Positions 3,296 through 34,789 of a stretch of DNA of 64,000 nucleotides are shown here, one piece after another (within the stretch, counting starts at the first letter, position 1; each line of letters begins with the position of its first letter). The stretch lies in the NCBI GenBank assembly GCA_044356725.1, contig JBIKVS010000001.1:2839-66838 (forward strand), written 5' to 3'. The position numbers and the translations under genes are program-made. This DNA comes from Minisyncoccia bacterium (GTDB taxonomy: Bacteria; Patescibacteriota; Minisyncoccia; SW-4-49-11). The notes below the pieces were generated by a model that worked only from the letters and a program-made list of their open reading frames with translations, made no database searches and was not told the origin of the DNA.

Positions 3296-3296
3296 T

Positions 3297-4067: not shown

Positions 4068-4087
4068 GGGGCGATACCATAATTATT

Positions 4088-4369
4088 ATGGAGACAATAT
4101 ATTTTATTTTAGTCTTATATACGATATTCTTACCAATTCCGTTTGGGGTATTGTGTATTATGTATACATTGAAGTATAAACCTAAATATAAAAGTCAATT
4201 ATGGTGGATATTAGGTCTTATTTTTATTTCTTATATACTTATGGCTATGGGAGGAATTATTAGTGATAATCTTGGTACAGATGGGGGCCAATTTAATTGG
4301 GTAACCGATATTTTCATTACCATTACTTATATCCTTGGTTTTAGATACCTATATAAAATAAAAAATTAA
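4088..4369 (+). CDS. Small membrane protein.
   Basis: Hydrophobic 93-aa ORF. Confidence 0.4.
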   Translation: METIYFILVLYTIFLPIPFGVLCIMYTLKYKPKYKSQLWWILGLIFISYILMAMGGIISDNLGTDGGQFNWVTDIFITITYILGFRYLYKIKN

Positions 4370-4397
4370 AACACTAGAAATACTTAGTAAATATTAA

Positions 4398-4742
4398 ATG
4401 AATATACTCAAAAATAACTTTTTAATACTCACAATAATATTAGCTATATCTATAATATTTTACTTTATTCCATTTATTTTTGGGCAATTCATATCTCCTT
4501 TTATAATTCTGATTGGTTTGAAAATGTCCCTACAAGCAAAAAGTTTAGATAAAATTATATTAGTTTTGGTGTCTATAGTATTTTATTGGTATTCTTTACA
4601 GATGATGTCTTTAGAGATGGATCAATTAGATAATGTGATTGATAAAGAAGTACAAATTCCTACCAGTCAACTCACTCACAGTATTACAACATTTATAGCT
4701 TGTTATGTAGTCGGTTTTGGGGCGATAAAAAGAAGAAAATAG
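4398..4742 (+). CDS. Small membrane protein.
   Basis: Hydrophobic 114-aa ORF. Confidence 0.4.
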   Translation: MNILKNNFLILTIILAISIIFYFIPFIFGQFISPFIILIGLKMSLQAKSLDKIILVLVSIVFYWYSLQMMSLEMDQLDNVIDKEVQIPTSQLTHSITTFIACYVVGFGAIKRRK

Positions 4743-4744
4743 CT

Positions 4745-5026
4745 CTACCCCTCCACTTTTTCAAATCTATGAACAAAACTTCCGCTGTCTAGTTGAACTG
4801 GTGTGTTCCAACCATTTTCACCGTTAATTTTTCTGACCCAGATGATTGAGTCGGCTATACTTTGGTAGACTACTACAGGTTCTTCATCCCATTCGGATAG
4901 GGCTATATTGAGGATTTGGTAATGTGTTTGCGGGTTTTTGTAATGATAATATTTAGCTCCTATTTCTATATTGTATTGCTCGGGATTTAACTTCTCTAAT
5001 AATTGAGTAGGGTCTGTATGTGCCAT
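4745..5026 (-). CDS. DUF1653-like small protein.
   Basis: YYHYKNP...VVVYQSIADSIIWVRKIN resembles the DUF1653 pattern YxHYKG...VVYxxLYG..WVRP. Confidence 0.45.
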   Translation of the reverse strand: MAHTDPTQLLEKLNPEQYNIEIGAKYYHYKNPQTHYQILNIALSEWDEEPVVVYQSIADSIIWVRKINGENGWNTPVQLDSGSFVHRFEKVEG

Positions 5027-5079
5027 AAATTTTGGAGTTAACTTATATTTTATATTATAGCATAATTAGAGTGTCTTTA

Positions 5080-5112
5080 ATACATTATTGCAAATGATTT
5101 GCAATAATGTAT
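5080..5112. promoter_or_regulatory. Perfect 33-bp palindrome (16+1+16), ATACATTATTGCAAAT-G-ATTTGCAATAATGTAT. Candidate metalloregulator (Zur/Fur-type) operator overlapping the promoter of the COG0523 GTPase gene.
   Basis: Every position checked for complementarity; lies in the divergent intergenic region between the DUF1653 gene and the COG0523 gene. Confidence 0.55.
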
Positions 5113-5127
5113 ATTTTGTGATATACT

Positions 5128-6261
5128 TTGAAAAGTAAATTACATAATATTATGCAAGATAAGCAAGCTAAACTTTTACCGGTGACAGTTTTATCTGGAT
5201 TTTTGGGTAGTGGGAAAACTACTCTTCTTAATGCTATTCTCAAAAATAGGCAGGGTCTTAAAGTTGCGGTGATTGTGAATGATATGTCTGATGTGAATAT
5301 TGATGCGGAATTGGTGGCTAATAATGAGGTTTCTCTGAGTAAGACCGAGGAAAAACTGGTTGAGCTCAGTAATGGATGTATTTGTTGTACATTGCGAGAA
5401 GATTTATTGGTAGAGGTGAAGAAATTAGCTCAAGAAAATCGATTTGATTATCTGGTGATTGAATCTACGGGAATATCTGAGCCATTGCCTATTGCAGAGA
5501 CATTTACCTTTGATGATGAGTCTGGAGATATTTTGTCTAATTTTGCAAAATTGGATACGATGGTGACGGTGGTGGATGTGGCTAGCTTTATGAATTATCT
5601 TGCTTCTGAAGATCAACTGAAAGATACTGATGAATCTCTTGGAGAGGAGGATACCAGAACTATTGTAGGACTTCTTACAGATCAAATTGAATTTGCTGAT
5701 GTGATTGTATTGTCTAAAGTAGATTTGGTGGATAAGGGAACCGTTGGTACTATTCGGGGTATTGTAGCTAAACTTAATCCTGATGCTCGGATTATTGAAG
5801 CGGTGAAAGGGGATATTCCGCTTGAGCAGATTTTAAATACGGGATTATTTGATTTTGATAAAGCTTTTCAAAATGTAGGGTGGCTCAAAGAAATGAGAGG
5901 TGAACATACTCCAGAAACAGAAGAATATGGTATTAGTAGTTTTGTATATGAGTCTAAAAAACCTTTTGATAGATCGAAGTTGATGGAATTACTACAAAAT
6001 GGGACATTAAAAGGGGTTGTTCGCTCTAAAGGATTTGCTTGGGATAATTCTGATCTTACGACGGCTTTATTATGGTCTCAAGCAGGGAATATTATTAATC
6101 TTGACTCCTATGGATATTGGAGCAAATCGAAGAGCGGGGATATAAAAGGAGAGCAAAAAATTGTCTTTATTGGAGCTGATATGGATAAAAAAGCTATTAT
6201 AGAGGCATTAGATAAGTGTTTGGTGAGAAATTATTTCTCAACAGTCAGTTCTGGCGAATAG
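5128..6261 (+). CDS. COG0523-family (CobW/YciC/ZigA-like) metal-chaperone GTPase.
   Basis: G1 motif GFLGSGKTT, CxCC motif GCICC and ESTGISEP. The listed start is TTG; the ATG at 5152 (MQDKQAKLLPV) is the more likely start. Confidence 0.75.
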   Translation: MKSKLHNIMQDKQAKLLPVTVLSGFLGSGKTTLLNAILKNRQGLKVAVIVNDMSDVNIDAELVANNEVSLSKTEEKLVELSNGCICCTLREDLLVEVKKLAQENRFDYLVIESTGISEPLPIAETFTFDDESGDILSNFAKLDTMVTVVDVASFMNYLASEDQLKDTDESLGEEDTRTIVGLLTDQIEFADVIVLSKVDLVDKGTVGTIRGIVAKLNPDARIIEAVKGDIPLEQILNTGLFDFDKAFQNVGWLKEMRGEHTPETEEYGISSFVYESKKPFDRSKLMELLQNGTLKGVVRSKGFAWDNSDLTTALLWSQAGNIINLDSYGYWSKSKSGDIKGEQKIVFIGADMDKKAIIEALDKCLVRNYFSTVSSGE

Positions 6262-6264
6262 TTT

Positions 6265-7083
6265 TTGAGTTTTATGCCTATCAGCCCGGCACCATATGTC
6301 GGGCTTTTCTCTATTCAAAAAGATAATATTATAGTACAATATATTTCAAATACTGGATACAGAATCGATAAGAATAGAATGATATATTGGAATCAAAGAT
6401 TGGTGGTGTTGGGGATGGCTATAATTGCAGTTGGATTAGTAGTAATTAGTGCTGTCGTTTCTCCTCAGGGAGATGAGTTGTTGGCCAAAAAAGCCTCTCT
6501 GTCTTATAACTCTATGTCTGATCCTAGCAGAACTTTTAGTGTGGATCAGGAAGCTAATATTCCTACTTGGTTTACAGGGGGTATTGCTTTATATTTAGCA
6601 ATGACTGCTGGTATGATTGCCTCAGTAGTAAAATCCCAAGGTAAGAAAATGGCTTGGGCTTGGAGAGGAATCTCTATAATGGCAATTTATATTGCTCTTG
6701 ATGAAGTGGCGGGATTTCATGAATTGGCGATTGATCCTATTCGTAGTAATTGGGATGTTGGTCCATGGCTATATCAGTCTTGGGTGATACCAGCGATGGC
6801 TTTGGTAGTATTGATTGGGATTATTTATTTTAGATTTTTGTGGAAATTACCTATCTATACAAAAGTTTATTTGTGTCTAGGGGCTTTAACTTATGTTACG
6901 GGTGCTATTGGGGTGGAATCAATTGGAGGCTTTGTCTTGACTACTCAAGGTTTGAGTGATTGGTATGTTCAATTATCTCATATCGAGGAATTTATGGAAA
7001 TGATGGGGCTAATTATTATTCTTTATTCGGTTGTAGAGTATGCCCGTCGTGAACTTAAATCTATGACTGTGATTCTAAAATAA
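6265..7083 (+). CDS. Integral membrane protein.
   Basis: Multiple TM helices. Confidence 0.45.
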   Translation: MSFMPISPAPYVGLFSIQKDNIIVQYISNTGYRIDKNRMIYWNQRLVVLGMAIIAVGLVVISAVVSPQGDELLAKKASLSYNSMSDPSRTFSVDQEANIPTWFTGGIALYLAMTAGMIASVVKSQGKKMAWAWRGISIMAIYIALDEVAGFHELAIDPIRSNWDVGPWLYQSWVIPAMALVVLIGIIYFRFLWKLPIYTKVYLCLGALTYVTGAIGVESIGGFVLTTQGLSDWYVQLSHIEEFMEMMGLIIILYSVVEYARRELKSMTVILK

Positions 7084-12893: not shown

Positions 12894-13217
12894 ATGAAAA
12901 AAGATAATTCAATAATAATATTCAATCAAAAGCTGGTAAGAAGGTCTTGGGACGAAGAAAAAGAACTTTGGTATTTTTCAGTTGTAGATGTAATTGAGAT
13001 TTTAACAGAAAGTATTAGCCCAAGAAAATATTGGAGTGTTCTTAAAACAAGACTAAGAAAGGAAGGAAGTGAGTTGGCTACAAATTGTAGTCAACTGAAA
13101 TTAGAGTCTTACGATGGGAAAAAATATTTAACTGATGTCTTAGATACTGAGAATATTTTGAGACTTATACAATCTATATATTCATCGCTTATGAGTCAAG
13201 TTTATCACTCACGATAA
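12894..13217 (+). CDS. Bro-N / DinD / RhuM-like domain protein.
   Basis: RRSWDEEKELWYFSVVDVIEIL...KYWSVLKTRLRKEGSE...SYDGKKYLTDVLDTENILRLI resembles the phage antirepressor N-terminal family. Confidence 0.4.
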   Translation: MKKDNSIIIFNQKLVRRSWDEEKELWYFSVVDVIEILTESISPRKYWSVLKTRLRKEGSELATNCSQLKLESYDGKKYLTDVLDTENILRLIQSIYSSLMSQVYHSR

Positions 13218-14149
13218 AACAGCTTTATACCGTCATCCAAGTCTTGGATTAAGGGTGTAATTTCTTTTCTCATAATAATTCCATTTCTTCTTGCAATTCC
13301 ATTTTCAAAATTCATCTTTAATATTTGTGATAATAGGTTAGATGTTCCCTCATCAATTATAATAATCGTATTAAAAGCTTTTTCTAGATCTATACAAGTC
13401 AAGAAAATAAAATCCAATGATTTCTCTTTTTTTAGGTCTTTAAGTATTTTTTTTATTTCAATTATATTAAATTTTGTAAAATCATCAACATTAATTATTT
13501 CAAGTTGAGCAATACCCAGACTCAGCCCTTTGAAATTAAATACAACAAATTCATCAGTTATTGGTTCTCTTAGGTTCTTTTTAAACTTAGATTTATATGT
13601 AAACATTTCTTTCACATAGTTTTTAGGAAGAGGGAATTTAGTTTTAAGCCAATTTGCCATTTTTTTATCTCTAGGTGTTGTTGTATTTGCTTTAAAATTT
13701 ATTGTATTTGAAATAATAGCTGAAAAGAGAAGAGCAGCTGATTCAGGAGAAATTCTGACTTGACTATTATAAAATTTTTCTGCAATCAAAGTAGATGCTG
13801 CTCCAACTAAATCTATCTGTATTTTTGCATTAGGAAATTTATTTGCTTCATTGACTTTCCTGTGATCAATAATCTCAATAACTTTATGAGATTGAATTTG
13901 ATCTGACAGATTTTTTATATCACTAGTATCAACTAAGATTATTCTTTCAATATTATTTATAATTTTTTCAGCATTTTCTAATGAAGTAATATTAAACTTA
14001 TCCAAAACAAACTGTGCTTCAATATGAGGCGAGCCAGATATAGCTCCCACTACATCTTTGTAAGTTGCATATAAAAATTCAGTATAAGCATAAGTACAGG
14101 CCACACCGTCTAAATCAGGATTTTTATAAGATGTGATTAAAATTTTCAT
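13205..14149 (-). CDS. DHH-family phosphoesterase, family II (Mn-dependent) inorganic pyrophosphatase-like.
   Basis: N-terminal KILITSYKNPDLDGV; IDHRKV in place of the DHH motif; SAIISNTINFK; C-terminal DHHA2-like RKEITPL. Length 314 aa, as for PpaC. Confidence 0.55.
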   Translation of the reverse strand: MKILITSYKNPDLDGVACTYAYTEFLYATYKDVVGAISGSPHIEAQFVLDKFNITSLENAEKIINNIERIILVDTSDIKNLSDQIQSHKVIEIIDHRKVNEANKFPNAKIQIDLVGAASTLIAEKFYNSQVRISPESAALLFSAIISNTINFKANTTTPRDKKMANWLKTKFPLPKNYVKEMFTYKSKFKKNLREPITDEFVVFNFKGLSLGIAQLEIINVDDFTKFNIIEIKKILKDLKKEKSLDFIFLTCIDLEKAFNTIIIIDEGTSNLLSQILKMNFENGIARRNGIIMRKEITPLIQDLDDGIKLFYRE

Positions 14150-14860
14150 TTAAAGTATTATATTACTTAAGTTTATAGTATCGAAATTATATAATAACTT
14201 TTCTTTTATATTATAAAAAGAGTTGGAAAATTCAGCTTTTATCTTGCTAGGTAATAATTTATTTTGATAAACATACACATCACTATAAATATAATTTCCT
14301 GGATAACATAGTAGTCTCCATCCACTAGAATTAGATAATGTATGTGGAAACTCTATTAAATTTTGCCTCATTAAGTATGTGACAGTAATTTCTTCAAGTA
14401 AAAAGTTTATATTTGCTTCAGTTTTTTCTCTACTACCAAGATCAGCAATTATATATTTAGTAAATTCTTCATTTGAATTTTTAAGAACTTTCAATTTGTC
14501 TAATAGTTCTTTATATTTTGTAGCATTTAATAGTACATAATCCCATGGTAAATAATGAAATGCTTGAGGTATAAATTTTTTGTTTTTGATTATCATATTT
14601 CGAAGTTCCCTAGTATGTCCAATCATTTGAAAGTTAGTTTTTTGTCTAACATCTAAAGCATTCTCATCAGTATTAAAATATAATCCATTTGTATACAAAA
14701 ATACAACATCTATTGATATTTCAGAAATTTTAGAACTAAAAAAATCTAAAAATTTATATATTTCAATAGGACTTTGATCGCTATGTAATTTACTCATGGA
14801 TAGCGGTAAAATTAATGTACCATTGGGCTTTAATCTTTGTATATCAAAATAGTTTTTCAT
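14150..14860 (-). CDS. Hypothetical protein, 236 aa, in an operon with the DHH gene (0-nt gap).
   Basis: ORF only; no family recognised. Confidence 0.4.
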   Translation of the reverse strand: MKNYFDIQRLKPNGTLILPLSMSKLHSDQSPIEIYKFLDFFSSKISEISIDVVFLYTNGLYFNTDENALDVRQKTNFQMIGHTRELRNMIIKNKKFIPQAFHYLPWDYVLLNATKYKELLDKLKVLKNSNEEFTKYIIADLGSREKTEANINFLLEEITVTYLMRQNLIEFPHTLSNSSGWRLLCYPGNYIYSDVYVYQNKLLPSKIKAEFSNSFYNIKEKLLYNFDTINLSNIIL

Positions 14861-14948
14861 ATAATATATAGGTTAACTAGCTAATTATTGAGTTAATTAT
14901 ACCATAATTATAACATATTATTAAAACTGATATAAATCCTTACCCATA

Positions 14949-14977
14949 ACTATTGACAGTAATTGACAATAGTTATA
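14949..14977 (+). promoter_or_regulatory. Imperfect palindrome AACTATTGACAGTAATTGACAATAGTT containing two TTGACA boxes, overlapping the promoter of the lectin gene.
   Basis: Inverted repeat AACTATTG/CAATAGTT; the same AACTATTGACA motif occurs upstream of 7157. Confidence 0.4.
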
Positions 14978-15006
14978 CTATAAAATAGTAGTGTTAAAAT
15001 AAATAT

Positions 15007-16785
15007 ATGAATACTAATCAAACATGGTCTGGAAAAAAGTCTTTTTTATTTGTGGCTTCATTAGCCACATTTTTTATTTATGATGCCTATGCTTTGGCTA
15101 ATTCTAATAATAGTCAAGGACTAAATGAATATATAGACCCTAGTCAAAATCCTAGGTATTCTCAAGTGTATAATGAAATTAACTTTACAGGAGATGGAAT
15201 TACCAAAGAAGAATTAGATGGTATCAATAGCCTTATAAACTTAAAAGAAAATTCTATTGAAGAGCCTATGGCTGTGGTAGGTGAGGAATTAGTCCCCATC
15301 TCTAAATTAAAAGTCGGAGCTAAAATCAAAAGCCTAACCTATAACAGTAGTTCTGAGGATACAAAAATACTAGAGTTAAATTATTATAGAGGCAAAGATG
15401 AACATTTAGAAAATAAAAAAGCCAAGAGAAAAGAATTAAAGGATAAAAAACTCAAAGAATATGAGCAAGCTTTGGCTACATTAGATGCTGAGATTAATTC
15501 ACAAGAACAACGACTACAGAAAAATAAAACCAACTGGGATAAAAAAGCTAAAAAACAAAAAGCTCAAGTAGAGAAATTAAAATCTAAAACTCAAACAGCC
15601 ATTAGCAATAGCAATAAAGAAATAATGGATATTCTATACCCTAGTAAAGAGAGTATAGATAAACTTAATTCTGAAATTTTGGAGGAGAGGAGAATTATAA
15701 ATGAGTTGGGATTAGATAAAATTTGGAAAAGAAAAGAATTAAAGCAAAATATATTTAGTTACCTATTGCCACAAGTTAAAGCAAGTTATCTTAATAATTT
15801 TGTATCTGACCTTATAATATATACTAGATCTAATATAGGTCTAAGAATAGACTTAAAGGGCAATGGTGTGTATAATGGAAATACATTTCATCTATGGACA
15901 GCTAATGGTAGCAATGCTCAAAAGTTAAAATTTATAGATAGTAGTGGAGAAATAAAATACGCTCAAAATCAAGGGTTTTGTTTAGATGTAGATTTGGCTA
16001 ATGGCAGATACGATAATGGAGACAGAGTGCATCTCTGGAATTGTCATGGAGGAGGTAATCAAAAATGGGTAGCTTTTCCTAATGGAGATATAAAACCAGC
16101 AAATAATCAAAACTACTGTTTAGATGCTAGTGCTGGGGTAAATCAAGGTAGTACACTACATCTTTGGAGTTGTCATGGAGGAAATAATCAAAAATTTCAA
16201 ATTGGAGAAGAGGATTTTGGTAAATTTGATTACTACATAAGATTACATGCCTCAACTGCTGAATATACTCAAAATAGGCTAAATGGACATGCTTTTGTAT
16301 CATTGCCGAAATTAGAAAAATCTAATAATTACTGGAGAAGTACTAATACATTTAGTTTTTGGAACACCAGAGATAGTAATAATAGCAATGATATGGGGAG
16401 AACTAATAATATGCATCCTAGAATAAACTACAATGGTAATTTCTCATCTCTAAATGTTGACCATCATAATGACTGGTTTAATGGAGACATGAATCTAAAT
16501 CATTTAGGTGGTGAGTTTGGAGGATATAAAAGAACTACCTCTGGTATACCAAAACAAAGATTTGAAGAGATTAAATATATGAGAGGATACAATATATATG
16601 GGTATACAGATAAAAAGTATGATGTATGTAAAGCTAACTGTGCTACATATTCTGTCGATTTATATAATTACTATAATAAAGGTACAGATCGTGGCGACTC
16701 ATATAACGATCCTGATTTTAATGCATGGGGTAATGGTATATTAGGTACTTGTACTTATCCTGGTAATATTTATAAAGCCTTATAA
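15007..16785 (+). CDS. Secreted multidomain protein: signal peptide, K/E-rich coiled coil, ricin-B lectin (beta-trefoil) domain with three QxW repeats, and an unknown C-terminal domain of about 200 aa.
   Basis: Three QxW repeats: HLWTANGSNAQKLKF, HLWNCHGGGNQKWVA and HLWSCHGGNNQKFQI. N-terminal hydrophobic signal sequence. Confidence 0.6.
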   Translation: MNTNQTWSGKKSFLFVASLATFFIYDAYALANSNNSQGLNEYIDPSQNPRYSQVYNEINFTGDGITKEELDGINSLINLKENSIEEPMAVVGEELVPISKLKVGAKIKSLTYNSSSEDTKILELNYYRGKDEHLENKKAKRKELKDKKLKEYEQALATLDAEINSQEQRLQKNKTNWDKKAKKQKAQVEKLKSKTQTAISNSNKEIMDILYPSKESIDKLNSEILEERRIINELGLDKIWKRKELKQNIFSYLLPQVKASYLNNFVSDLIIYTRSNIGLRIDLKGNGVYNGNTFHLWTANGSNAQKLKFIDSSGEIKYAQNQGFCLDVDLANGRYDNGDRVHLWNCHGGGNQKWVAFPNGDIKPANNQNYCLDASAGVNQGSTLHLWSCHGGNNQKFQIGEEDFGKFDYYIRLHASTAEYTQNRLNGHAFVSLPKLEKSNNYWRSTNTFSFWNTRDSNNSNDMGRTNNMHPRINYNGNFSSLNVDHHNDWFNGDMNLNHLGGEFGGYKRTTSGIPKQRFEEIKYMRGYNIYGYTDKKYDVCKANCATYSVDLYNYYNKGTDRGDSYNDPDFNAWGNGILGTCTYPGNIYKAL

Positions 16786-16795
16786 TGTAAACTAT

Positions 16796-17200
16796 ATGAT
16801 AATTATATATAAAATAATAAGTTCAATACTTTTGTTGCTGACCTTAATAAATTCTGAAATAATCTTCAATTCTTCAGTGTTAGGCTACGAAATAGATATG
16901 GGGTTGGCTTATATAGCTGCGGGAATGTTTTGGTTTTGTTTTATTGTAGTTTTGATAATAGACCTAATTTTAAAATTACAAGGATATAAATTAGTATTAT
17001 TCAAAATTAATTATGTATTAATATTTCTTTTTATAATATTTCTTATAATTAACCTCATATACAATCCTATCAACCCAACTAATTATAGATATGAACCTGC
17101 GACTTGGTATGTAATTACAGAATTGATATACAACATAGGTTTTTATGGCTTAATAATAGTTAAATCTATATATTCGATATTTTTTCAGATAAGAAAATAG
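16796..17200 (+). CDS. Small polytopic membrane protein (4 TM) immediately downstream of the lectin gene.
   Basis: Hydrophobic 134-aa ORF. Confidence 0.4.
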   Translation: MIIIYKIISSILLLLTLINSEIIFNSSVLGYEIDMGLAYIAAGMFWFCFIVVLIIDLILKLQGYKLVLFKINYVLIFLFIIFLIINLIYNPINPTNYRYEPATWYVITELIYNIGFYGLIIVKSIYSIFFQIRK

Positions 17201-17305: not shown

Positions 17306-17908
17306 ATGAAAGGAATAGTTTATATAATGACAACCGTAGTCGATGGGCTTATCAAAATAGGGCAGACAGGAAGTCAGAACTATCAAGAGCGGATGAGACA
17401 TCTTGAGTCAAATGGATACTATAATGTCTCAGGATTAAAGAGATTTTTTGCAATTGAACTAGAAGATTATATTTACAAAGAAAATCTACTCAAAGAAATT
17501 TTCAATAAGCATAGAGTAGCAGATAGTGAGCTATTCGCCCTAGACTATGATTTGGTAAGGCAATTATTACTATCTTTTGAAGGCAAAGTAATATATCCAA
17601 AAGACATAGACAAAGAAAAAGAATTTGATGAAGTAGCAAAATCCAGAGAACAAAGTGCAAAATTTAGTTTTTATAAAAAAGGCATTCAAAATGGAGAAGA
17701 AATTGTCTTTATCGCCGACAAAGACATAACAGCAAAAGTAGTAGGGGAAAGAGATGTAGAATATGGAGGACAAATTTATAAACTATCCCCATTAACCCTC
17801 AAAATATACCAACAAAAAGGCAATAGTAATAAAAGTGGAGCCTATCAAGGAGCAGCCTATTGGCAATATAAAGGAAAGAAATTAAAAGATTTACCGGATA
17901 GGGGGTAG
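17306..17908 (+). CDS. T5orf172 (GIY-YIG-like) domain protein with a C-terminal DUF4357-like region.
   Basis: GIVYIMTTVVDGLIKIGQTGSQNYQERMRHLESNG...FFAIELEDY matches the T5orf172 pattern. C-terminal AYWQYKGKKLKDL resembles DUF4357. Confidence 0.55.
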   Translation: MKGIVYIMTTVVDGLIKIGQTGSQNYQERMRHLESNGYYNVSGLKRFFAIELEDYIYKENLLKEIFNKHRVADSELFALDYDLVRQLLLSFEGKVIYPKDIDKEKEFDEVAKSREQSAKFSFYKKGIQNGEEIVFIADKDITAKVVGERDVEYGGQIYKLSPLTLKIYQQKGNSNKSGAYQGAAYWQYKGKKLKDLPDRG

Positions 17909-18323: not shown

Positions 18324-18524
18324 ATGAATCATCTTCGAAATGCAAGTCGTTTTGGAGTCATATTATTTTGGTCAGTTGTTATTGGTCTGATCCATTCGGC
18401 ATTTAACAACATCGATAATTCCAAATCACTTGGGTGGCCAACATGGTTGTTTTATGGAAGTGTTGGAGGAGCTATAATTTACGGTGGTGCATCTGTAACT
18501 CCCAAACTTTGGAACATCAAATGA
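18324..18524 (+). CDS. Small membrane protein, first gene of the higher-GC cassette.
   Basis: Two TM helices. Its stop overlaps the next start (ATGA). Confidence 0.4.
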   Translation: MNHLRNASRFGVILFWSVVIGLIHSAFNNIDNSKSLGWPTWLFYGSVGGAIIYGGASVTPKLWNIK

Positions 18525-19225
18525 AACTCTCTCTCCTCAAAACAGCTCGCGTTCTTACTGCGATCAGTATTGTGGCATTAGCCAGTGCTTGTTCAAGAGC
18601 ACCTTCCAATGTCCATGTCATTTCTACCACAGACTGTGGTGCAAGATGGACAAAGTTGGTTGTTGGACAAACAGTCCCTGCTCACACAGGTAATCCATGT
18701 GGCTACACTGTTGCCATTCCAAATTGGCCAATGTCGGGAGATGCTAGGTTTAAAACCCAGTTTGCCAAAGGGGTTCTGAGTGATGGAGAAATAAGTTATA
18801 CTTATATCATCACTGATCCACTCAAATTCATCAATAATGCTCGTTATCTGGGCAAAATGGCTGGTAGTTTGGAGATATCTGCTGAGTCTGTTGGTAGTCG
18901 TTATGAAATGGCAGAAAACATACTTATTGATAAATTATTGCGAGAGGTAGCAACAGAACTTACCCGTTCAATTGATGTTGTGAGGGCAAACCCTGCAGAA
19001 ATTGAAGACAATATCTTTAAGAAGGCAAAGACTGATCTTGAAGATAGAGGCATTCAACTATCTGATCTGGCACTCGTTATCAAAAATGACGAACAAACAC
19101 GGCTTGCTATTGATGCAGCAACAGCAATTCGGGTTTATGAAACAGCTGGAATTGGAGATGTTGGCCGACAGGTAATTGTAGCACGTTCTGGTGCTGCAAG
19201 GATCAATGTTAATGCTGGTAAATAA
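18521..19225 (+). CDS. Lipoprotein with a possible SPFH/band-7-like C-terminal region. The start is moved to the internal Met; the ORF-track start at 18434 overlaps the upstream gene.
   Basis: Signal peptide plus lipobox MKLSLLKTARVLTAISIVALASAC. GC is about 42% against about 30% for the genome. Confidence 0.5.
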   Translation: MKLSLLKTARVLTAISIVALASACSRAPSNVHVISTTDCGARWTKLVVGQTVPAHTGNPCGYTVAIPNWPMSGDARFKTQFAKGVLSDGEISYTYIITDPLKFINNARYLGKMAGSLEISAESVGSRYEMAENILIDKLLREVATELTRSIDVVRANPAEIEDNIFKKAKTDLEDRGIQLSDLALVIKNDEQTRLAIDAATAIRVYETAGIGDVGRQVIVARSGAARINVNAGK

Positions 19226-19378: not shown

Positions 19379-22378
19379 ATGGCATATAATGAAGATACAA
19401 GAGTAAAAATTCCAGCTATACTGCATCTAATGAGCTTAGGTTATGAATATCTTTCTCTCAAAAATCAAAATTATGACCAAGAGACCAATATATTTACAGA
19501 TATATTTATAAATAGTCTTTCTAAATTAAATCCTGACACAGATATTTCAGACATCACAAGAGAATTAAATAGAATAAGTCTAGATCTTGAGAACGAGGAC
19601 TTAGGTAGAGAATTTTATAATAATCTCATCACACCATCAGGTATAAAATACATAGATTTTGATAACCCTAAAAACAATAGCTTCCATATCGTCACCGAAC
19701 TCACCTACAAAAAAGACGAAGATGAATTCCGCCCAGACATAACCTTACTAATCAATGGAATGCCACTAGTCTTCATTGAAGTTAAAAAGCCAAACAATCA
19801 CGAAGGAGTTGTTGCCGAGAGAAACCGAATGAATATTCGTTGCCAAAATAAGCAATTCCGTAAATTCATTAACCTAACCCAACTCCAGATTTTCAGTAAT
19901 AATATGGAGTATCAAGAAGAGGCTAACAATCTTCTTCAGGGAGCTTTTTATGCCACCTCATCTTATACAGAATTTAATTTCAACTCATTTAGAGAAGAAG
20001 AAATCTTTGATTATACTTCAATCATAAAACCATTAACCGAAGATCAAGAAAATCTAGTGCTAAAAGACACCAACCACCCTGCAATCAAAAATTCACCAGA
20101 ATTTATCACCAATAGAAATAAAGAAACCCCCACCAATCGTATATTAACTTCTTTGTGTTCACCCGCCAGATTACTGTGGATACTAAAATATGCCTTTGCA
20201 TATATTGAGCCAGAAATCGGAGGGCTACAAAAACATATAATGAGATACCCTCAAATCTTCGCCTCCAAAGCCATAGTACAACAATTAGATCAAGGACTAC
20301 AAAAAGGTATAATTTGGCATACACAAGGAAGTGGAAAAACAGCCCTCGCTTATTATAGTGTCAAAGTAATTTCAGACTATTACAAAAAATATAATATAGT
20401 TCCAAAATTTTACTTTATAGTAGATAGACTAGATTTATTAACCCAAGCCAAAAGAGAATTCACTAGTAGGGGATTAAAAGTCCACATTATACAAACTAGA
20501 GAAAAATTAATCCAAGACTACCAATTACAACAAGCCACCCGCTCAGCAGATGGAATCCCAGAAATAACCGTCGTCAATATCCAGAAATTCAGTGAAGACT
20601 CCAGCATACTCAATAATCTGGACTATTCAATCAATATCCAGCGAATCTACTTTTTAGATGAAGTACACAGAAGCTACAATCCAAGGGGAAGCTTTTTGGC
20701 TAATCTGATGACATCAGATACCAAAGCTATAAAAATTGGACTCACAGGAACTCCATTGATAGGTAAAAATCGTAATTCAACCAATATCTTTGGAAATTAT
20801 ATACATAAATATTATTACAATTCCTCCATAAGAGATGGTTATACTTTAAGATTAATCAGAGAAGGCATAGATGCTGAATATAGAATTAAATTAGAAGAAA
20901 TTATTCGCTCTATAGAAATCCAAAAAGGCACAGTCAAAAGAGAGCAAATCTACTCCCATCCAAACTTCGCCAAGCCAATGCTAGAATATATCATCAAAGA
21001 CTTTCAAACTAGTCGTAAATACCACGGAGACAATACTATTGGAGCTATGGTAGTCTGCGATAGTTCCGAACAAGCTAAAGTTTTTTATGACATATTCCAA
21101 GCTCAATATGCAAGCGAGCTTAGCTCAGCTCTAATCCTACACGACATCGGTTCCAAAGAAGAAAGGAAAACTCAAGTAGAAAATTACAAAGCAGGTAAAA
21201 TAGACATACTTTTTGTATACAATATGCTACTCACTGGTTTTGATGCTCCAAGACTTAAAAAACTATATCTAGGACGAATGGTCAAAGAGCATAATTTACT
21301 CCAAACCTTAACCAGAGTCAATCGCCCCTACAAAAATTTCAGATACGGCTTCGTAGTAGATTTTGTCGATATCAGACAAGAATTCGAAGCCACCAACAAA
21401 GCCTATTTTGAAGAATTACAGCAAGAATTAGGAGACGAAATACAATATTACAAAGATATGTTCGTCAGCCCTGAGGAAGTAGAACAACAACTCAACCAAG
21501 CCAATGATGTGCTTATTACCTACGACACCCAAAATGCCGAAATTTTCTCCCAACAAATCAGTCAAATAGAAGACCACAAAGAAGTACTAAGCATCAAAAA
21601 AGCCCTCGAGAACCTCACCAATCTTTATAATATAGCCAGACTATATGGCCAAACCGAAATATTAGAAAAAATAGACTTTCTCCAAATCAGAAGACTATAT
21701 AATGAAATATCACATAGACTAGAACTGCTAAAACTCAAAGAAGCAATGGAATCCAAAGTAGACAATCAAAACCTCATCAATGAGGCAATGGAAAATATCT
21801 ACCTCACCTTCCGCAAAGTCTCCGAAGAAGAACTCCAAATCTCAGACCAGCTCCACGACACAATGAAAAAAACTCGTGAAGCCCTACAAGTCAACTTCGA
21901 CCAAAAAGACCCAGAATTCATATCACTATACGAAGAATTACAAAAAATCTTCCAAAGAAAAAAGATGAATGAAATGACCCAGGAAGATATGCAGTATAAT
22001 ATAGAACATCTAGACAATATCTATCACAAAATCACCGAAGTCAATCGTCGCAACAACCTCCTCAAAGCCAAATATGAATCAGACGAAAAATATGCTCGTA
22101 TTCACAAAAGACTAACACAAGACAACCGATTTACCGACAAAAGACAAGCCCAAATTATCCAAGCCCTACTCAATATCAAGCATCAAACCGACCACATCGT
22201 CCTCAATAATCAAGCCGTCATAGAAAAAGAAGAATACTTCAAAGACACAATGATGCCAATCCTAATCCAAGCCTTCCAGACTGAAAAACTACCCCTAGAC
22301 AGCATCGCCGCCAAAGATATCAACACTTGGATTACCAAAGAATACCTACAAGAATATAATGGACATCACCTATGGTAG
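19379..22378 (+). CDS. hsdR: Type I restriction enzyme R subunit.
   Basis: N-terminal HsdR-N region; helicase motif I WHTQGSGKT; motif II FLDEVHRS; 999 aa; overlaps hsdM. Confidence 0.85.
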   Translation: MAYNEDTRVKIPAILHLMSLGYEYLSLKNQNYDQETNIFTDIFINSLSKLNPDTDISDITRELNRISLDLENEDLGREFYNNLITPSGIKYIDFDNPKNNSFHIVTELTYKKDEDEFRPDITLLINGMPLVFIEVKKPNNHEGVVAERNRMNIRCQNKQFRKFINLTQLQIFSNNMEYQEEANNLLQGAFYATSSYTEFNFNSFREEEIFDYTSIIKPLTEDQENLVLKDTNHPAIKNSPEFITNRNKETPTNRILTSLCSPARLLWILKYAFAYIEPEIGGLQKHIMRYPQIFASKAIVQQLDQGLQKGIIWHTQGSGKTALAYYSVKVISDYYKKYNIVPKFYFIVDRLDLLTQAKREFTSRGLKVHIIQTREKLIQDYQLQQATRSADGIPEITVVNIQKFSEDSSILNNLDYSINIQRIYFLDEVHRSYNPRGSFLANLMTSDTKAIKIGLTGTPLIGKNRNSTNIFGNYIHKYYYNSSIRDGYTLRLIREGIDAEYRIKLEEIIRSIEIQKGTVKREQIYSHPNFAKPMLEYIIKDFQTSRKYHGDNTIGAMVVCDSSEQAKVFYDIFQAQYASELSSALILHDIGSKEERKTQVENYKAGKIDILFVYNMLLTGFDAPRLKKLYLGRMVKEHNLLQTLTRVNRPYKNFRYGFVVDFVDIRQEFEATNKAYFEELQQELGDEIQYYKDMFVSPEEVEQQLNQANDVLITYDTQNAEIFSQQISQIEDHKEVLSIKKALENLTNLYNIARLYGQTEILEKIDFLQIRRLYNEISHRLELLKLKEAMESKVDNQNLINEAMENIYLTFRKVSEEELQISDQLHDTMKKTREALQVNFDQKDPEFISLYEELQKIFQRKKMNEMTQEDMQYNIEHLDNIYHKITEVNRRNNLLKAKYESDEKYARIHKRLTQDNRFTDKRQAQIIQALLNIKHQTDHIVLNNQAVIEKEEYFKDTMMPILIQAFQTEKLPLDSIAAKDINTWITKEYLQEYNGHHLW

Positions 22379-23982
22379 AGCAAATTTTCATACAACAAAC
22401 CAAACACCTCATAGACACACTCAAAACAACCTGTGCCAACTATGGATTAGGTAATGATGGGAATGAATTCAAAATCATCACCCAAGCCTTTTTATATAAA
22501 TTCCTAAACGATAAATTCGCCCATCAAGCCAAAAGTATAGATTCAAGACTCGCCCAAGCCGACAATTGGGAGCAAGAAGTACAAAAATATAGCCAAGAAG
22601 AATACGAAATGCTACTCCTAAAAATGGGAGCCTCCATTAAACTCAAACCACAACATTATATTTCTTATCTATTCAACAGACAAGGAGAAGACGATTTTCA
22701 TAAACTTTTTGACGACACCCTCCGAGATATAGCCGACCTCAATAGCTCTATTTTCTCAGTCCAAACAGGAGGTGGAGCCAAAATACAACTATTCGATGAA
22801 TTAAGCCAATTTGTTCACGACCCCTCCCAGCGAGATGCTTTTTGTAAAGCCATCATCAACCCTCTAGTCAATATCAACTTTGAGAACATCTACCAACAAA
22901 AATACGACTTTTTCTCCACCATCTTTGAATATATGATCAAAGATTACAACAAGGACGGAGGCGGGAAATATGCCGAGTATTACACCCCCCATGCCGTTGC
23001 CAAAGTAATGGCACAAGTAATGGTAGATAAAGATTTCCGCAATGTCACCGTCTACGACCCCTCCGCAGGGTCAGGAACATTATTAATGAATATCGCCCAT
23101 GCTATCGGAGAAGATAAATGTAGTATTTATTCTCAAGATATTTCTCAAAAATCCTCCAATCTACTCAGATTAAACCTAATCCTAAACGATTTAAACCACT
23201 CCATCGCCAATATCATCCAAGGCGACACAATGATGAAACCAGCTCACAGAGATAAAAAATTTGACTTCATCGTCTCCAATCCACCCTTCAAATTAGACTT
23301 TAGCGAATACCGAGACGACCTAGATAGCAAAATCAATCACGAAAGATTTTTTGCAGGAATTCCCAAAACCCCTAAAAAAGATGTAGATAAAATGGCAATA
23401 TATCTACTTTTCATACAACATATAATGTATTCACTCAGCGATACGGGTCGTGCCGCCATAGTCGTCCCAACAGGATTTATCACCGCACAAAGTGGTATAG
23501 AGAAGAAAATTCGCCAACAAATGATTGAACAACAAATGCTCAAAGGAGTAGTCAGTATGCCCAGCAATATCTTCGCCACCACAGGAACTAATGTCTCAAT
23601 TCTTTTCCTAGATAGAGATAATACCAGTGGGGAAGTAGTCTTAATGGATGCCTCCAAACTTGGTAAAACCATCAAAGATGGCAAAAACCAAAAAACCCTA
23701 TTATCAGAAGCAGATGAACAACAAATTATTGACTCCTTTAGAAACCGAGAAGCAATTGAAGACTTCTCCGTCGTAGTCAGTTTTGATGAAATTAAAGAGA
23801 AAAATTATAGCTTTAGTGCAGGACAATACTTTGATATCAAAATAGAATATACAGACATAACCCCAGCAGAATTTAGCCAAAAAATGCAAAATTACAAAAC
23901 TAATTTAGCCAATTATTTTCAAGAATCCAAAGAATTAGAAAATCAAATTTTTGAAAATTTGGATAAATTAAAATATGAGTAA
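22372..23982 (+). CDS. hsdM: Type I R-M N6-adenine DNA methyltransferase M subunit.
   Basis: Catalytic motif IVSNPPF; AdoMet motif DPSAGSGTLL; N-terminal HsdM-N domain. Confidence 0.9.
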   Translation: MVEQIFIQQTKHLIDTLKTTCANYGLGNDGNEFKIITQAFLYKFLNDKFAHQAKSIDSRLAQADNWEQEVQKYSQEEYEMLLLKMGASIKLKPQHYISYLFNRQGEDDFHKLFDDTLRDIADLNSSIFSVQTGGGAKIQLFDELSQFVHDPSQRDAFCKAIINPLVNINFENIYQQKYDFFSTIFEYMIKDYNKDGGGKYAEYYTPHAVAKVMAQVMVDKDFRNVTVYDPSAGSGTLLMNIAHAIGEDKCSIYSQDISQKSSNLLRLNLILNDLNHSIANIIQGDTMMKPAHRDKKFDFIVSNPPFKLDFSEYRDDLDSKINHERFFAGIPKTPKKDVDKMAIYLLFIQHIMYSLSDTGRAAIVVPTGFITAQSGIEKKIRQQMIEQQMLKGVVSMPSNIFATTGTNVSILFLDRDNTSGEVVLMDASKLGKTIKDGKNQKTLLSEADEQQIIDSFRNREAIEDFSVVVSFDEIKEKNYSFSAGQYFDIKIEYTDITPAEFSQKMQNYKTNLANYFQESKELENQIFENLDKLKYE

Positions 23983-24832
23983 TCAAACAAGAAAAATTAA
24001 GGTAGAAGGCAAAGAGATTACATTATTTGTTGAGAATGATAATGATTTTATTTCTCTTACCGATATATTAAAATCAAAAGATGGAGACTTTTTTATTTCT
24101 GATTGGTTACGAAATAGAAATACATTAGAGTTTCTAGGGGCTTGGGAACAATTAAATAACCCCGATTTTAATTATGGCGAATTCGCCATAATTAAAAATC
24201 AATCAGGATTAAATAGCTATAAAATTAGTGTCAAAGAATGGGTACAAAAGACCAATGCAATAGGATTAAGAGCAGTAGCTGGTCGTTATGGAGGCACTTA
24301 TGCACATAAAGATATTGCCTTTGAATTTGGGATGTGGATTAGTCCAATGTTCAAACTGTATCTCATTAAAGAATTCCAAAGACTCAAAGAAGAAGAAAAT
24401 AGACGATTAGAACTAGGTTGGGACTTAAAACGAGACCTAACAAAAATTAACTATAAAATACACACAGATGCTATCAAAGAACATATTATTCCAAAATTAA
24501 CAAAAAAAGACATTAAATTTGTATATCCCAGTGAAGCAGATATTTTGAATAAAGCACTCTTTGGAATGACTGCAAGTGAATGGAAAGAAAAAAATCCAGA
24601 TAAAAAAGGAAATATGCGAGATTCAGCCGATGTTTATCAATTGGTATGTCTTGCCAATCTTGAGACTCATAATGCCGAATTTATTGAACAAGGACTAACT
24701 CAAGCAGAGAGGATATATAAGTTGAATACAATTGCCATAAGACAAATGAAGTCATTAACTACAAATATCCAAGTAAAATCATTAGACCAGAAAAGCAAAA
24801 AAATGATAGAGTCTAAGGAGGAGGGGATATGA
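23975..24832 (+). CDS. KilA-N domain protein embedded in the R-M operon.
   Basis: KEITLFVENDNDFISLTDILKSKDGDFFISDWLRNRNTLEFLGAWEQLNNPDFNYGEFAIIK...GRYGGTYAHKDIAFEFGMWISP recalled as the KilA-N family seen in type I R-M loci. Its start overlaps the hsdM stop and its stop overlaps the hsdS start. Confidence 0.6.
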   Translation: MSNQTRKIKVEGKEITLFVENDNDFISLTDILKSKDGDFFISDWLRNRNTLEFLGAWEQLNNPDFNYGEFAIIKNQSGLNSYKISVKEWVQKTNAIGLRAVAGRYGGTYAHKDIAFEFGMWISPMFKLYLIKEFQRLKEEENRRLELGWDLKRDLTKINYKIHTDAIKEHIIPKLTKKDIKFVYPSEADILNKALFGMTASEWKEKNPDKKGNMRDSADVYQLVCLANLETHNAEFIEQGLTQAERIYKLNTIAIRQMKSLTTNIQVKSLDQKSKKMIESKEEGI

Positions 24833-26064
24833 GTAAAAAAGTAATACAAATTGGTAAAATAGCAAAACTTAATTTTAAAACACTTCGTGAAAGTGATAAT
24901 TTATCTGTAATTCAGTATCTAGATACAGGAAATATAACTAAAGATGAAATACAAAATTTACAGATACTAAACATAAAACAAGGTAGATTTCCAAGTAGAG
25001 CTAAAAGAAGAGTTAAAGAAAATACTATTATTTACTCCACGGTTAGACCAAATCAAAAACATTATGGTATCTTAAAAAGTCCAAATAAAAATTTAATTGT
25101 TTCAACTGGATTTACAACAATTGACATCATTAATAAAAAAAATGATCCAAAATTTATTTATTATCTTTTAACTCAAAACCAAATTACAGAACATCTTCAT
25201 AAAATAGGAATGAACGGGACTTCTTCTTACCCTTCAATTAAACCTGAAGATATTGGTAATTTGAAATTTATAATTCCAGAAAACATTCAAGACCAACAAA
25301 AAATCGCCTCTGTATTCTCAACAATTGATTCTAAAATCGAACTCAATAACAAAATCAATACCGAGCTCGAGCAAATGGCAAAAACCCTCTACGACTACTG
25401 GTTCGTACAATTTGATTTCCCAGTCCCTAAAAATTCCCCTCTTGAGGGGTGGACAGCTTCGCTGGACGGGGTGGAAGAAACAAAACCCTACAAAACCAGC
25501 GGCGGAGCAATGGTCTATAGCCAAGAACTAAAAAGACACATCCCCAAAGGCTGGGAGGTGAAGAAAATTAGTGATTTATTACCAGTAATTACAGGGAAGC
25601 AAGATGCAAATTTTGCTACCGAAAATGGAGAATATAATTTTTTTACTTGTGGAGAGGAAATCTTAAAATGTAATTCATACGAATTTGAAGGGAAGGCTGT
25701 TTTGATTGCAGGAAATGGAAATTTTGGGATCAAATTATATGAAGGAAAATTTAATGCCTATCAGCGAACATATATTCTAATGCCAAACAATGAAAAGCAT
25801 TACACTATTATTTATCTTGCAGTAAAAGATAAAATACAGTCTTTCAAAAATAGTTCTCGTGGTTCAATTATAAAATTTATAACAAAAGGAGATATAGAAA
25901 ATATTTTAATTCCTTTGCCAAAAGATAAGGATTTAGATGTATTTACTCAGCTCAATAATATCACAGAGAAAATTGAAAAAAATCTTGAAGAAAATCAAAA
26001 GCTTGCTGAGCTTAGAGACTTTCTCTTACCAATGCTTATGAATGGACAGATAGTAGTGGAGTAG
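24829..26064 (+). CDS. hsdS: Type I R-M specificity subunit with two target-recognition domains.
   Basis: Position in the operon; two-TRD architecture with conserved central and C-terminal coiled regions. Confidence 0.8.
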   Translation: MSKKVIQIGKIAKLNFKTLRESDNLSVIQYLDTGNITKDEIQNLQILNIKQGRFPSRAKRRVKENTIIYSTVRPNQKHYGILKSPNKNLIVSTGFTTIDIINKKNDPKFIYYLLTQNQITEHLHKIGMNGTSSYPSIKPEDIGNLKFIIPENIQDQQKIASVFSTIDSKIELNNKINTELEQMAKTLYDYWFVQFDFPVPKNSPLEGWTASLDGVEETKPYKTSGGAMVYSQELKRHIPKGWEVKKISDLLPVITGKQDANFATENGEYNFFTCGEEILKCNSYEFEGKAVLIAGNGNFGIKLYEGKFNAYQRTYILMPNNEKHYTIIYLAVKDKIQSFKNSSRGSIIKFITKGDIENILIPLPKDKDLDVFTQLNNITEKIEKNLEENQKLAELRDFLLPMLMNGQIVVE

Positions 26065-29770: not shown

Positions 29771-29772
29771 AT

Positions 29773-31158: not shown

Positions 31159-31167
31159 ATAGTTATA

Positions 31168-34788: not shown

Positions 34789-34789
34789 A

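Follow-up and report, generated by a model that had tools for sequence, protein, structure and literature searches.

The described proteins that are closest to the locus reported here are circularly permuted members of the papain-like fold, with the catalytic His located before the catalytic Cys in the sequence. Tox-Act1 is a permuted NlpC/P60 phospholipase toxin with His43 and Cys151 as the catalytic residues; its immunity protein contains two transmembrane (TM) helices (PMC12994826). The published triads of TseH and Lnb are His64-Glu81-Cys172 and His49-Asn66-Cys148, respectively (PMC11573676). DUF4105, the family of Lnb, has been identified as papain-like, and both Peptidase_C97 and TMEM222/RTE1 were placed in an NlpC/P60-like cluster that holds circularly permuted families (PMC10318531). 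In this study, we analyzed one gene pair of a Minisyncoccia bacterium of the Patescibacteriota (GenBank assembly GCA_044356725.1, contig JBIKVS010000001.1, positions 2,839–66,838 of the forward strand). The whole stretch of DNA that was analyzed is 64,000 nucleotides (nt) in length and is referred to as the window. The pair is composed of one gene for a 592-amino-acid (aa) protein and one gene for a small membrane protein; as judged from the sequence comparisons described below, the two very probably encode a toxin and its cognate immunity protein.

Linkage, co-variation and exchange of the gene pair

The 592-aa open reading frame (ORF), the predicted toxin gene, spans 15007–16785 on the plus strand, stop codon included. 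The candidate immunity gene is located on the same strand at 16796–17200; it is 134 aa in size and, according to hydropathy, contains four hydrophobic segments that are predicted to cross the membrane. The gap between the two ORFs is 10 nt. Both ORFs are thus located where an earlier, sequence-only reading of this DNA had placed them, including the small polytopic product directly downstream. Proteins identical to the 592-aa ORF are present on at least 10 metagenome contigs, and in NCBI and JGI they are labeled 'hypothetical protein'.

Relatives of the protein are few. With the C-terminal region as query, one word-indexed search against 5.8 billion proteins identified only two relatives. A profile constructed from those three sequences was then scanned with full HMMER against 1.84 billion cluster representatives; it gave 29 matches, 17 of which are at E ≤ 1e-10. 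As far as these searches go, the C-terminal domain is a tiny family. When species-representative genomes were scanned with a profile of three close sequences, two genomes matched, a Candidatus Parcubacteria metagenome-assembled genome (MAG; locus L009) with a C-terminus 86% identical to that of the window protein and a Candidatus Paceibacterota MAG (locus L010) with one 73% identical. This placement fits the sequence-only reading, which had taken the organism to be episymbiont-like. The full-length family members are mostly 530–680 aa in size and share one single architecture; in order, a signal peptide with AxA-type site is followed by the conserved domain of the N-terminus, a charged stretch that varies between members, a junction motif, a lectin and the C-terminal domain.

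We examined 16 cassettes from 14 loci, namely the window, L001 (two cassettes), L008–L013, L016, L017 (two cassettes) and L018–L021. All 16 have a small ORF with 2–4 hydrophobic segments, which either begins 0–80 nt after the toxin stop codon or overlaps it. Conservation of the downstream ORF, on which the idea of a functional pair depended, extends to very divergent cassettes; across the 16, the identity of the toxin C-terminus falls to about 30%. The partner ORF of L013 was absent from the original gene calls, and the L011 partner is a short ORF with two TM segments. In L014, which is outside the 16, the contig ends within a hydrophobic ORF.

As grouped by all-against-all BLAST, the partners belong to 15 families, and toxin subtypes beyond those named below also have partner families of their own. 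Neither the window partner, which is a member of family F1, nor any other partner ORF matched Pfam, NCBIfam or PHROGs. The identity of the first partner follows the toxin subtype. All four toxins of subtype T2 (window, L009, L016 and L010) have F1 as first partner; elsewhere, the first partner is F3 in L019, L020 and L021, F5 in L018, F2 in L011, and F4 in the second cassette of L017 (L017b). In toxin cluster T1, which partner family is present depends on the final ∼60 aa of the toxin, from the YMxGY motif through the helix that begins at the invariant Cys (the Cys helix) to the end. The identity of this tail is 71–76% among the F3-partnered toxins and 35–47% otherwise, whereas the rest of the domain is 60–83% identical either way. 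Compared to the toxin C-terminal domains, the partners diverge faster; for three comparisons, the identities of C-terminal domain and partner are 87% versus 54%, 74% versus 32%, and 58% versus 28%, respectively.

Module exchange was evident from comparison of related loci, and it centers on the junction motif NKEIMDILYPSKESIDKLNSEILEERR (aa 203–229; 15613–15693, plus strand), which is both the recombination breakpoint and the start of the orphan modules. The motif is family-wide; of 13 full-length members that were checked, 11 contain it, with the consensus NKELMD(I/L)(I/L)YP(S/P).E.I..LN.EI..E. The orthologous locus was identified in a close relative as L020, in which the P-type ATPase upstream and the T5orf172 ORF downstream are 92% and 97% identical to those of the window, respectively. 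The toxins of the two loci are 78–90% identical from residue 1 to about residue 230, and 25–68% identical thereafter. Four partner ORFs, of families F3, F5, F2 and F4, follow the L020 toxin. Since F5, F2 and F4 each hold the first-partner place with a different toxin subtype elsewhere, they look like spare immunity genes in L020.

The same break, just after EILEER of the junction motif, was observed between the L009 protein and P0013, which are 82–95% identical before it and 15–65% after it, and it also parts P0030 from P0031. In L010, the toxin ORF becomes homologous exactly at EILEER; the sequence before this point is unrelated, and another TM ORF is located downstream. A 5′-truncated toxin copy with MDILYPS as its start is present in both L015 and L016. 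Beside the disrupted toxin of L018, which is not of subtype T2, there is an orphan partner of family F1, and its identity to the L009 partner is 89%. Tandem cassettes are present in L001 and L017, two in each.

Some toxin genes are split. In the first cassette of L001 (4–1062), the lectin part (ORF 4–384) and the effector part (ORF 445–1062) are separate, and the L018 toxin is divided into ORFs 3417–3788 and 3815–5116. The partners are retained in both; these split toxins are possibly pseudogenes or assembly errors.

Linkage, co-variation, orphans and module swapping are the defining behaviours of polymorphic toxin-immunity systems (PMC12994826). The toxin-immunity pair proposed by the sequence-only reading is supported by the linkage in every cassette examined, by the co-variation of partner and toxin subtype, by the orphan partners and by the replacement of the C-terminus at the orthologous locus. 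Taken together, these observations make us confident, short of certainty, that the two ORFs form a cognate pair. From the arrays of spare immunity genes, we argue that the targets of the toxin include, at the least, related strains. The pair might also serve in host attachment, the alternative that the sequence-only reading had named.

The C-terminal domain and its probable fold

The C-terminal domain (aa 401–592; 16207–16782, plus strand) is the candidate effector and represents a new family, defined by 29 homologues, an AlphaFold2 model and sub-threshold matches to known families. The sequence-only reading had described this region as uncharacterised, and it is: no Pfam or NCBIfam profile matched aa ∼396–592, and the C-terminal ∼195 residues have no match in PHROGs or among PDB sequences either. 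A profile search of the PDB sequences with this domain gave only one spurious match, at E 1.9. The same reading had pointed to a conserved-looking His upstream of CKANCATYS, and both residues turned out to be invariant. In an alignment of 24 and later 31 domains, in which residue 1 corresponds to aa 396 of the protein, the invariant residues are His33, Asn52, Asp61, Asn72, Asn73, Asp90, Asp94, Lys121, Cys150 and Pro190. His33, Asn52 and Cys150 of the domain correspond to His428, Asn447 and Cys545 of the protein, respectively.

His428 (codon 16288–16290, plus strand), the candidate catalytic His, is the His of NGHAFVSL; it is conserved in 30 of 30 covering sequences and is located at the start of the strand formed by domain residues 32–42. 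Asn447 (codon 16345–16347, plus strand), the candidate third residue of a triad, is located on the next strand, within TNTFSFW, and is conserved in 31 of 31 sequences. Cys545 (codon 16639–16641, plus strand), the candidate nucleophile, is the second Cys of CKANCATYS; it is likewise conserved in 31 of 31 sequences and is the first residue of helix 150–162 in the model. The distance between the His and the Asn is 13–19 residues, depending on the member, and His428 and Cys545 are 117 residues apart.

AlphaFold2 with the 24-sequence alignment produced a compact domain, with a predicted local distance difference test score (pLDDT) of 78.6 and a predicted template modeling score (pTM) of 0.81; with an alignment of three sequences only, the pLDDT was 29.5. 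Disorder, which had been named beforehand as a refuting outcome for the C-terminal region, was thus not seen. The modeled domain begins with three long strands, the second opened by the His and the third carrying the Asn, followed by one insert, two strands and one helix; the invariant Cys opens a further helix after these. In the model, a Cys at the N-terminus of a helix and a His on an upstream strand form the arrangement of circularly permuted papain-like proteins.

The invariant residues also bear on a non-enzymatic reading, in which the protein would be an adhesin or surface structural protein, the membrane protein its anchor or assembly partner, and the His and Cys structural or metal-binding residues. 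The lectin and the coiled-coil stalk, together with the lack of any significant match to an enzyme family, would suit such a protein. However, the identity of the remaining domain falls to about 30%, yet His, Asn and Cys never vary and have a geometry of catalytic type; neither orphan partners nor swapping of the C-terminus is expected for an anchor. On these grounds the pure adhesin was rejected, and we regard it as very improbable.

A Pfam scan at lax E-value, using family members and the hidden Markov model (HMM) consensus, gave recurring sub-threshold matches to three families only. Peptidase_C97/PPPDE scored 17.4–18.6 bits against a gathering score of 29.2, with a best E of 0.0018; Lnb_N/DUF4105 scored 16.6 bits against 22.2 (E 0.006), and RTE1/DUF778 scored 14.3 bits against 29.4 (E 0.04). 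The Lnb_N match is co-linear, with residues 26–153 aligned to positions 25–153 of a 175-position profile. All three families are papain-like, and that three independent weak matches fall into such families is suggestive but no proof. In the structure comparison with Foldseek against the PDB, TseH was ranked second, with an E of 0.088 and a TM-score of 0.28.

Pairwise comparisons were made with hhalign. Against DeSI-1, His and Cys were aligned in register with P values of 0.044–0.054, below significance both as a single sequence and as a low-diversity alignment of vertebrate orthologues. The P values were 0.28 against PLA2G16 and 0.44 against YiiX; these alignments covered only the surroundings of the Cys and were also below significance. 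With each of the three proteins, Cys545 was paired with the catalytic Cys. The DeSI-1 sequence was verified against 3EBQ, and the human PLA2G16 and Escherichia coli YiiX sequences were verified too. The layout of the putative triad matches those of both Lnb and TseH, and the spacing between His and Cys, 117 residues here, is comparable to the 108 residues of Tox-Act1 and TseH and the 99 residues of Lnb.

The sequence-only reading had named a circularly permuted papain-like peptidase among several possibilities. The order of His before Cys and the invariance of both residues agree with this suggestion, and it is the best fold assignment available, although all matches are sub-threshold. We therefore call a circularly permuted papain-like fold of NlpC/P60/PPPDE type probable, not proven, because every papain-like match in sequence or structure is below threshold; the domain is not filed as a member of any named family.

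Domain architecture and proposed mechanism

The N-terminal part of the protein bears the marks of an exported protein. Residues 1–31 (15007–15099, plus strand) form a predicted Sec signal peptide; hydropathy and inspection by eye revealed one N-terminal hydrophobic segment, aa 13–31, which is followed by ALA|N, and cleavage is predicted after ALA. At the corresponding position, an AxA-type site is also present in the full-length relatives, in line with the signal peptide that the sequence-only reading had proposed. The signal peptide is followed by one conserved domain (aa 35–128; 15109–15390, plus strand) that is kept across the family, with the consensus QGLNEY(I/V)DPS..P.Y...Y.EI.F (QGLNEYIDPS in the window protein); it has no Pfam, NCBIfam or PHROG match.

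A Lys/Glu-rich helical stalk, probably a coiled coil by composition, connects this domain to the junction motif (aa 126–200; 15382–15606, plus strand). K, R, E and D account for 45% of its residues and Lys for 25%, and it has a single Pro/Gly. Pfam and NCBIfam gave weak matches of coiled-coil type only, for example DUF3584 and HlyD. The K/E-rich coiled coil of the sequence-only reading, placed at about aa 130–240, is thus seen as a charged region at aa 126–200, the composition of which would fit either a charged helix or a coiled coil.

Different from the other parts of the protein, the ricin-B/CBM13 β-trefoil lectin (aa 281–397; 15847–16197, plus strand) belongs to a known family, Ricin_B_lectin (PF00652), with an E of 1.2e-17 and a score of 64.8 bits (cut-off, 29). 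Its top match among PDB sequences is the CBM13 of xylanase 1knl (E 3.6e-15), and ricin-B entries match too. The 'clean' β-trefoil with three QxW repeats that had been noticed earlier proved to be correct for the fold and the number of repeats; the repeats end in QKL, QKW and QKF, so that literal QxW holds for one of three, and the pattern is really Q-x-(L/W/F). Carbohydrate binding by this domain is inferred from its sequence.

The best explanation of the whole, in our view, is a Sec-secreted polymorphic toxin, probably lipid-directed, together with a membrane immunity protein, in candidate phyla radiation (CPR) bacteria of the Parcubacteria/Paceibacterota; our confidence in it is a little better than even. 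The toxin would be exported via Sec and its signal peptide cleaved. The N-terminal domain and stalk would hold or present the protein, and the lectin would dock it on the envelope glycans of a target cell. With Cys545, His428 and Asn447 as its catalytic residues, the C-terminal domain would then act as a Cys hydrolase or acyltransferase that cleaves off an acyl group or transfers it; the target would be an acyl bond of a membrane lipid or lipoprotein, as with TseH, Tox-Act1, Lnb, LRAT and YiiX. At the producer's own membrane, the four-TM partner would neutralise the toxin, probably by contacting the tail that contains the Cys helix; a producer with a single membrane would otherwise be open to attack by the enzyme that it secretes. 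As for the junction motif, it may serve as a recombination handle, a processing site, or both.

That the substrate is a lipid or lipoprotein is suggested by what permuted NlpC/P60 proteins are known to do (LRAT/PLAAT, YiiX, Lnb, Tox-Act1 and TseH) and by the membrane-embedded partner, to which the two-TM Imm-Act1 is a parallel; by this analogy we propose it tentatively, with somewhat less than even confidence. The main alternative is a peptidoglycan or isopeptide substrate. The same architecture would then belong to a cell-wall hydrolase that breaches the wall of a host or competitor or remodels that of the producer, and the partner would be its regulator or inhibitor. Canonical NlpC/P60 enzymes are indeed peptidoglycan peptidases (PMC12994826), Peptidase_C97, one of the weakly matching families, is an isopeptidase family, and lectin or CBM13 domains are typical wall- or glycan-targeting modules on hydrolases. 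However, the His-before-Cys order points to the permuted group, the characterised members of which act on lipids or acyl groups, and polytopic membrane partners with tiny loops are atypical as inhibitors of soluble wall hydrolases. TseH illustrates both sides: it was first proposed as an endopeptidase but now shows phospholipase activity. We consider a wall hydrolase unlikely.

The lectin could also be taken as the binding moiety of an AB-type toxin, since many AB toxins have a ricin-B domain as their B moiety. It would mediate uptake by a eukaryotic host, for example a protist, inside which a PPPDE-like deubiquitinase, deSUMOylase or depalmitoylase would act; the weak Peptidase_C97 match would agree with this, for DeSI proteins are annotated as isopeptidases or palmitoyl-protein hydrolases. 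Yet anti-eukaryotic effectors generally lack adjacent immunity genes (a criterion given in PMC12994826), whereas a co-varying partner is universal here, and no translocation domain is evident in the protein. An AB toxin is accordingly less probable in our estimate than a wall hydrolase, and only marginally more probable than the adhesin.

CPR bacteria are reported to be without lipid synthesis and rich in lysolipids (PMC7242380), which raises the possibility of a parasitism or nutrient factor rather than a weapon between strains. The lectin would bind a host bacterium, the enzyme would free or transfer the acyl chains or lipids of the host, and the partner would shield the membrane of the producer. 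A predicted secreted, lectin-bearing protein would suit this role, as would the type IV pilus components, typical of episymbionts, that are encoded in the window. The arrays of orphan partners and the allelic swapping of toxin end and partner in near-identical strains, however, speak for antagonism between relatives rather than for a housekeeping uptake factor, and the family is rare (29 representatives) and found in variable, island-like contexts. We rate the nutrient factor, like the wall hydrolase, as having a low probability. A lipid-harvesting role is an attractive but unproven extension of the same idea, and we give it no greater credence: lipid-auxotrophic CPR bacteria would secrete a lectin-guided permuted NlpC/P60 phospholipase or acyltransferase, acyl chains would be stripped or transferred from the membranes of hosts or neighbours, and the partners would act as membrane shields. 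If this were true, it would provide a direct molecular route to the lysolipid-rich membranes reported for CPR bacteria. The diversification of the partners and of the Cys-helix tails would then reflect an arms race between Parcubacteria strains that occur together, and the CPR would have its first documented case of polymorphic toxin warfare that depends on Sec.

Several points weigh against the explanation as a lipid-directed polymorphic toxin with a membrane immunity protein. No papain-like family reached significance in sequence or structure with Pfam, hhalign or Foldseek, and Foldseek against the PDB and BFVD gave nothing at E ≤ 0.001. The AlphaFold2 model was built on a shallow 24-sequence alignment. 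The substrate is inferred by analogy alone, and the toxicity and secretion of the 592-aa protein are predictions from sequence. All the C-termini found belong to one domain family, so the polymorphism is within one family and not across folds; a database search with the N-terminal 245 aa, seeking other C-terminal folds, returned only fragments of the same family. For the partners, small hydrophobic ORFs in AT-rich DNA evolve fast anyway, and some partner ORFs were missed by gene finders.

The CPR bacteria, Parcubacteria among them, are uncultivated organisms with minimal genomes, for which a life attached to other cells is assumed. The locus provides a concrete candidate effector for their interactions with hosts and with each other, with a new enzyme-domain family that has three invariant residues of catalytic type, a targeting module, an exchange-site motif and partner families sorted by subtype; it suggests that these tiny symbionts fight each other or their hosts. 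Should the toxin be directed against other strains, kin discrimination would be something in which even episymbionts with reduced genomes invest; should the domain act on lipids, it would be relevant to the origin of CPR membranes.

Genomic context and comparison with known systems

The region upstream of the toxin gene contains one inverted repeat (14946–14976, no strand) with 13-nt arms, ATAACTATTGACA at 14946–14958 and TGACAATAGTTAT at 14964–14976, which are 92% complementary and separated by a 5-nt spacer. The repeat overlaps the –35 region and contains two TTGACA hexamers, at 14953 and 14963. A sigma-70-like promoter candidate, TTGACA-17-TACTAT (14953–14981, plus strand), is located 26 nt 5′ of the ATG and matches the consensus at 10 of 12 positions. 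This candidate was picked by consensus match alone, and promoter-like sites in the upstream region are no more numerous than in shuffled sequence. Its hexamers are kept upstream of the L009 and L020 orthologues, as TTGACA and a CAATAGTTATA(C/G)TAT stretch.

The sequence-only reading had located a palindromic operator with a double TTGACA over the promoter at 14949–14977. The repeat, the two hexamers and the overlap with the promoter are real, although the coordinates are slightly different. The role of an operator fares less well: the palindrome exists, but it is poorly conserved. L020, the closest orthologous locus, keeps its inner ∼9 nt and both TTGACA hexamers, and L009 lacks the left arm; the inverted repeat in its full length of 13 nt is confined to the window. 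A regulatory operator at the repeat is possible but unsupported.

Divergent from the toxin promoter, one 236-aa ORF without family match is located at 14150–14860 on the minus strand, followed by a DHH/DHHA2 phosphoesterase gene (13205–14149, minus strand). In L020 this block is missing between the ATPase and the toxin gene; therefore, it is not part of the system. On the other side, directly after the immunity gene, there is a 200-aa T5orf172 ORF (17306–17908, plus strand; GIY-YIG-like, PHROG label 'homing endonuclease'), and its 97% identical copy in L020 (6627–7229) has the same position after the four-gene partner array. One ORF with a lipoprotein-like signal (..LASAC) is located at 18434–19225 (plus strand) in a locally GC-richer stretch and has no Pfam or PHROG match. 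It is followed at 19379–26064 (plus strand) by a type I restriction-modification system, which comprises a 999-aa HsdR, HsdM and HsdS, with a KilA-N protein between M and S; the Pfam labels of this system were taken from an identical contig. With the restriction-modification and T5orf172 genes, the stretch after the toxin cassette looks like a variable defence or mobile island.

The contexts of the other family cassettes are likewise variable and island-like. In L001, a 6.9-kb metagenome contig, a Cas12a (Cpf1) gene (3090–6812) is located directly downstream of the two tandem cassettes. GC-rich, non-coding-looking stretches flank several cassettes in AT-rich DNA (L019 6102–6316, L015 532–888, L016 3325–3681 and L009 532–756), and the one in L019 is a 96-bp tandem repeat of 2.2 copies.

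Further along the window, the minus strand encodes a V/A-type ATPase operon at 29156–37409, with ATP-synt_ab matches for its A and B subunits and a V_ATPase_I-like subunit of 678 aa. At 46794–49793 (minus strand) there is a 999-aa protein with two T2SSE/PilB-type ATPase stretches, an apparent tandem fusion, and it adjoins a 472-aa ORF with an N-terminal pilin methylation motif (49916–51334, plus strand). This type IV pilus machinery is compatible with the kind used by episymbiotic CPR bacteria.

The neighbourhood also bears on a phage-type lysis cassette, composed of an exported endolysin and a holin. A small multi-TM protein does adjoin a putative wall- or membrane-active enzyme. However, PHROGs gave no match for either the effector domain or the partner, with only weak matches of unknown function at the border of the lectin; no phage structural genes are nearby, and the surrounding genes are of chromosomal or defence type. 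In addition, the position of the 'holin' is downstream, the 592-aa gene encodes a predicted cleavable signal peptide and a stalk, and the cassettes occur in tandem arrays. On these grounds, the lysis cassette was rejected, and we hold it to be the least probable of all the explanations considered.

Among the known systems closest to the proposed toxin-immunity pair is Tox-Act1/Imm-Act1, a Salmonella T6SS (type VI secretion system) effector pair. Both have a permuted core with His before Cys (His43/Cys151 in Tox-Act1, His33/Cys150 of the domain here), act, or here would act, outside the cytoplasm, encode a small membrane immunity protein directly downstream and belong to polymorphic toxin loci (PMC12994826). 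Different from Tox-Act1, which is delivered by the T6SS in Proteobacteria, the protein here has a Sec signal, a lectin and a stalk and comes from CPR bacteria; the two are likened by residue layout and description. Imm-Act1 contains two TM helices, whereas the window partner contains four and the other partner families of this system contain 2–4.

TseH (Vibrio cholerae VCA0285; PDB 6v98) is also a permuted NlpC/P60 toxin, with its triad laid out as here. The structural match, however, is below significance, the third residue is Glu and not Asn, and TseH is a T6SS cargo that has neither lectin nor stalk. Lnb/DUF4105, the Bacteroides lipoprotein N-acyltransferase (PMC11573676), gave the longest co-linear sub-threshold Pfam match and has the same His-Asn-Cys type of triad; it works at the outer face of the cytoplasmic membrane, as is proposed for the toxin here. 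Yet it is a housekeeping enzyme fused to five TM helices, with no secreted lectin fusion or immunity partner. The PPPDE/DeSI proteins (Peptidase_C97; PDB 3EBQ and 2WP7) share the permuted papain fold that we propose, and their nucleophile motif, Y..x..NCNTFS, is similar to Y..x..NCATYS here; different from the present domain, they are eukaryotic and viral, cytosolic proteins, and in the present domain an insert of ∼50 aa separates strand 3 from the core strand that follows.

In their targeting by a carbohydrate-binding module, which steers a secreted protein to the cell surface, ricin-B/CBM13 enzymes and toxins and the lectin-like bacteriocins (LlpA) resemble the present protein, but the effector domain here is new. 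To our knowledge, LlpA-type bacteriocins use monocot mannose-binding lectins (MMBL) and have no immunity gene.

In organization, the locus is close to the CdiA-CT/CdiI (VENN motif), Rhs and LXG systems, which have a conserved N-terminal part, a junction motif with divergence after it, an immunity gene directly downstream, orphan toxin-end/immunity modules and arrays of spare immunity genes (summarised in PMC12994826, and general knowledge). Those systems use type V, VI and VII secretion, whereas export here is apparently by plain Sec; the exchanged unit here includes the lectin, and all the variants found so far carry the same toxin-domain family. A full-text literature search found no lectin-fused permuted-papain toxin and no polymorphic toxins of this type described in Patescibacteria. 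The kind of system is thus already known; what is new is the toxin-domain family, the junction motif, the N-terminal domain, the partner families and the lineage.

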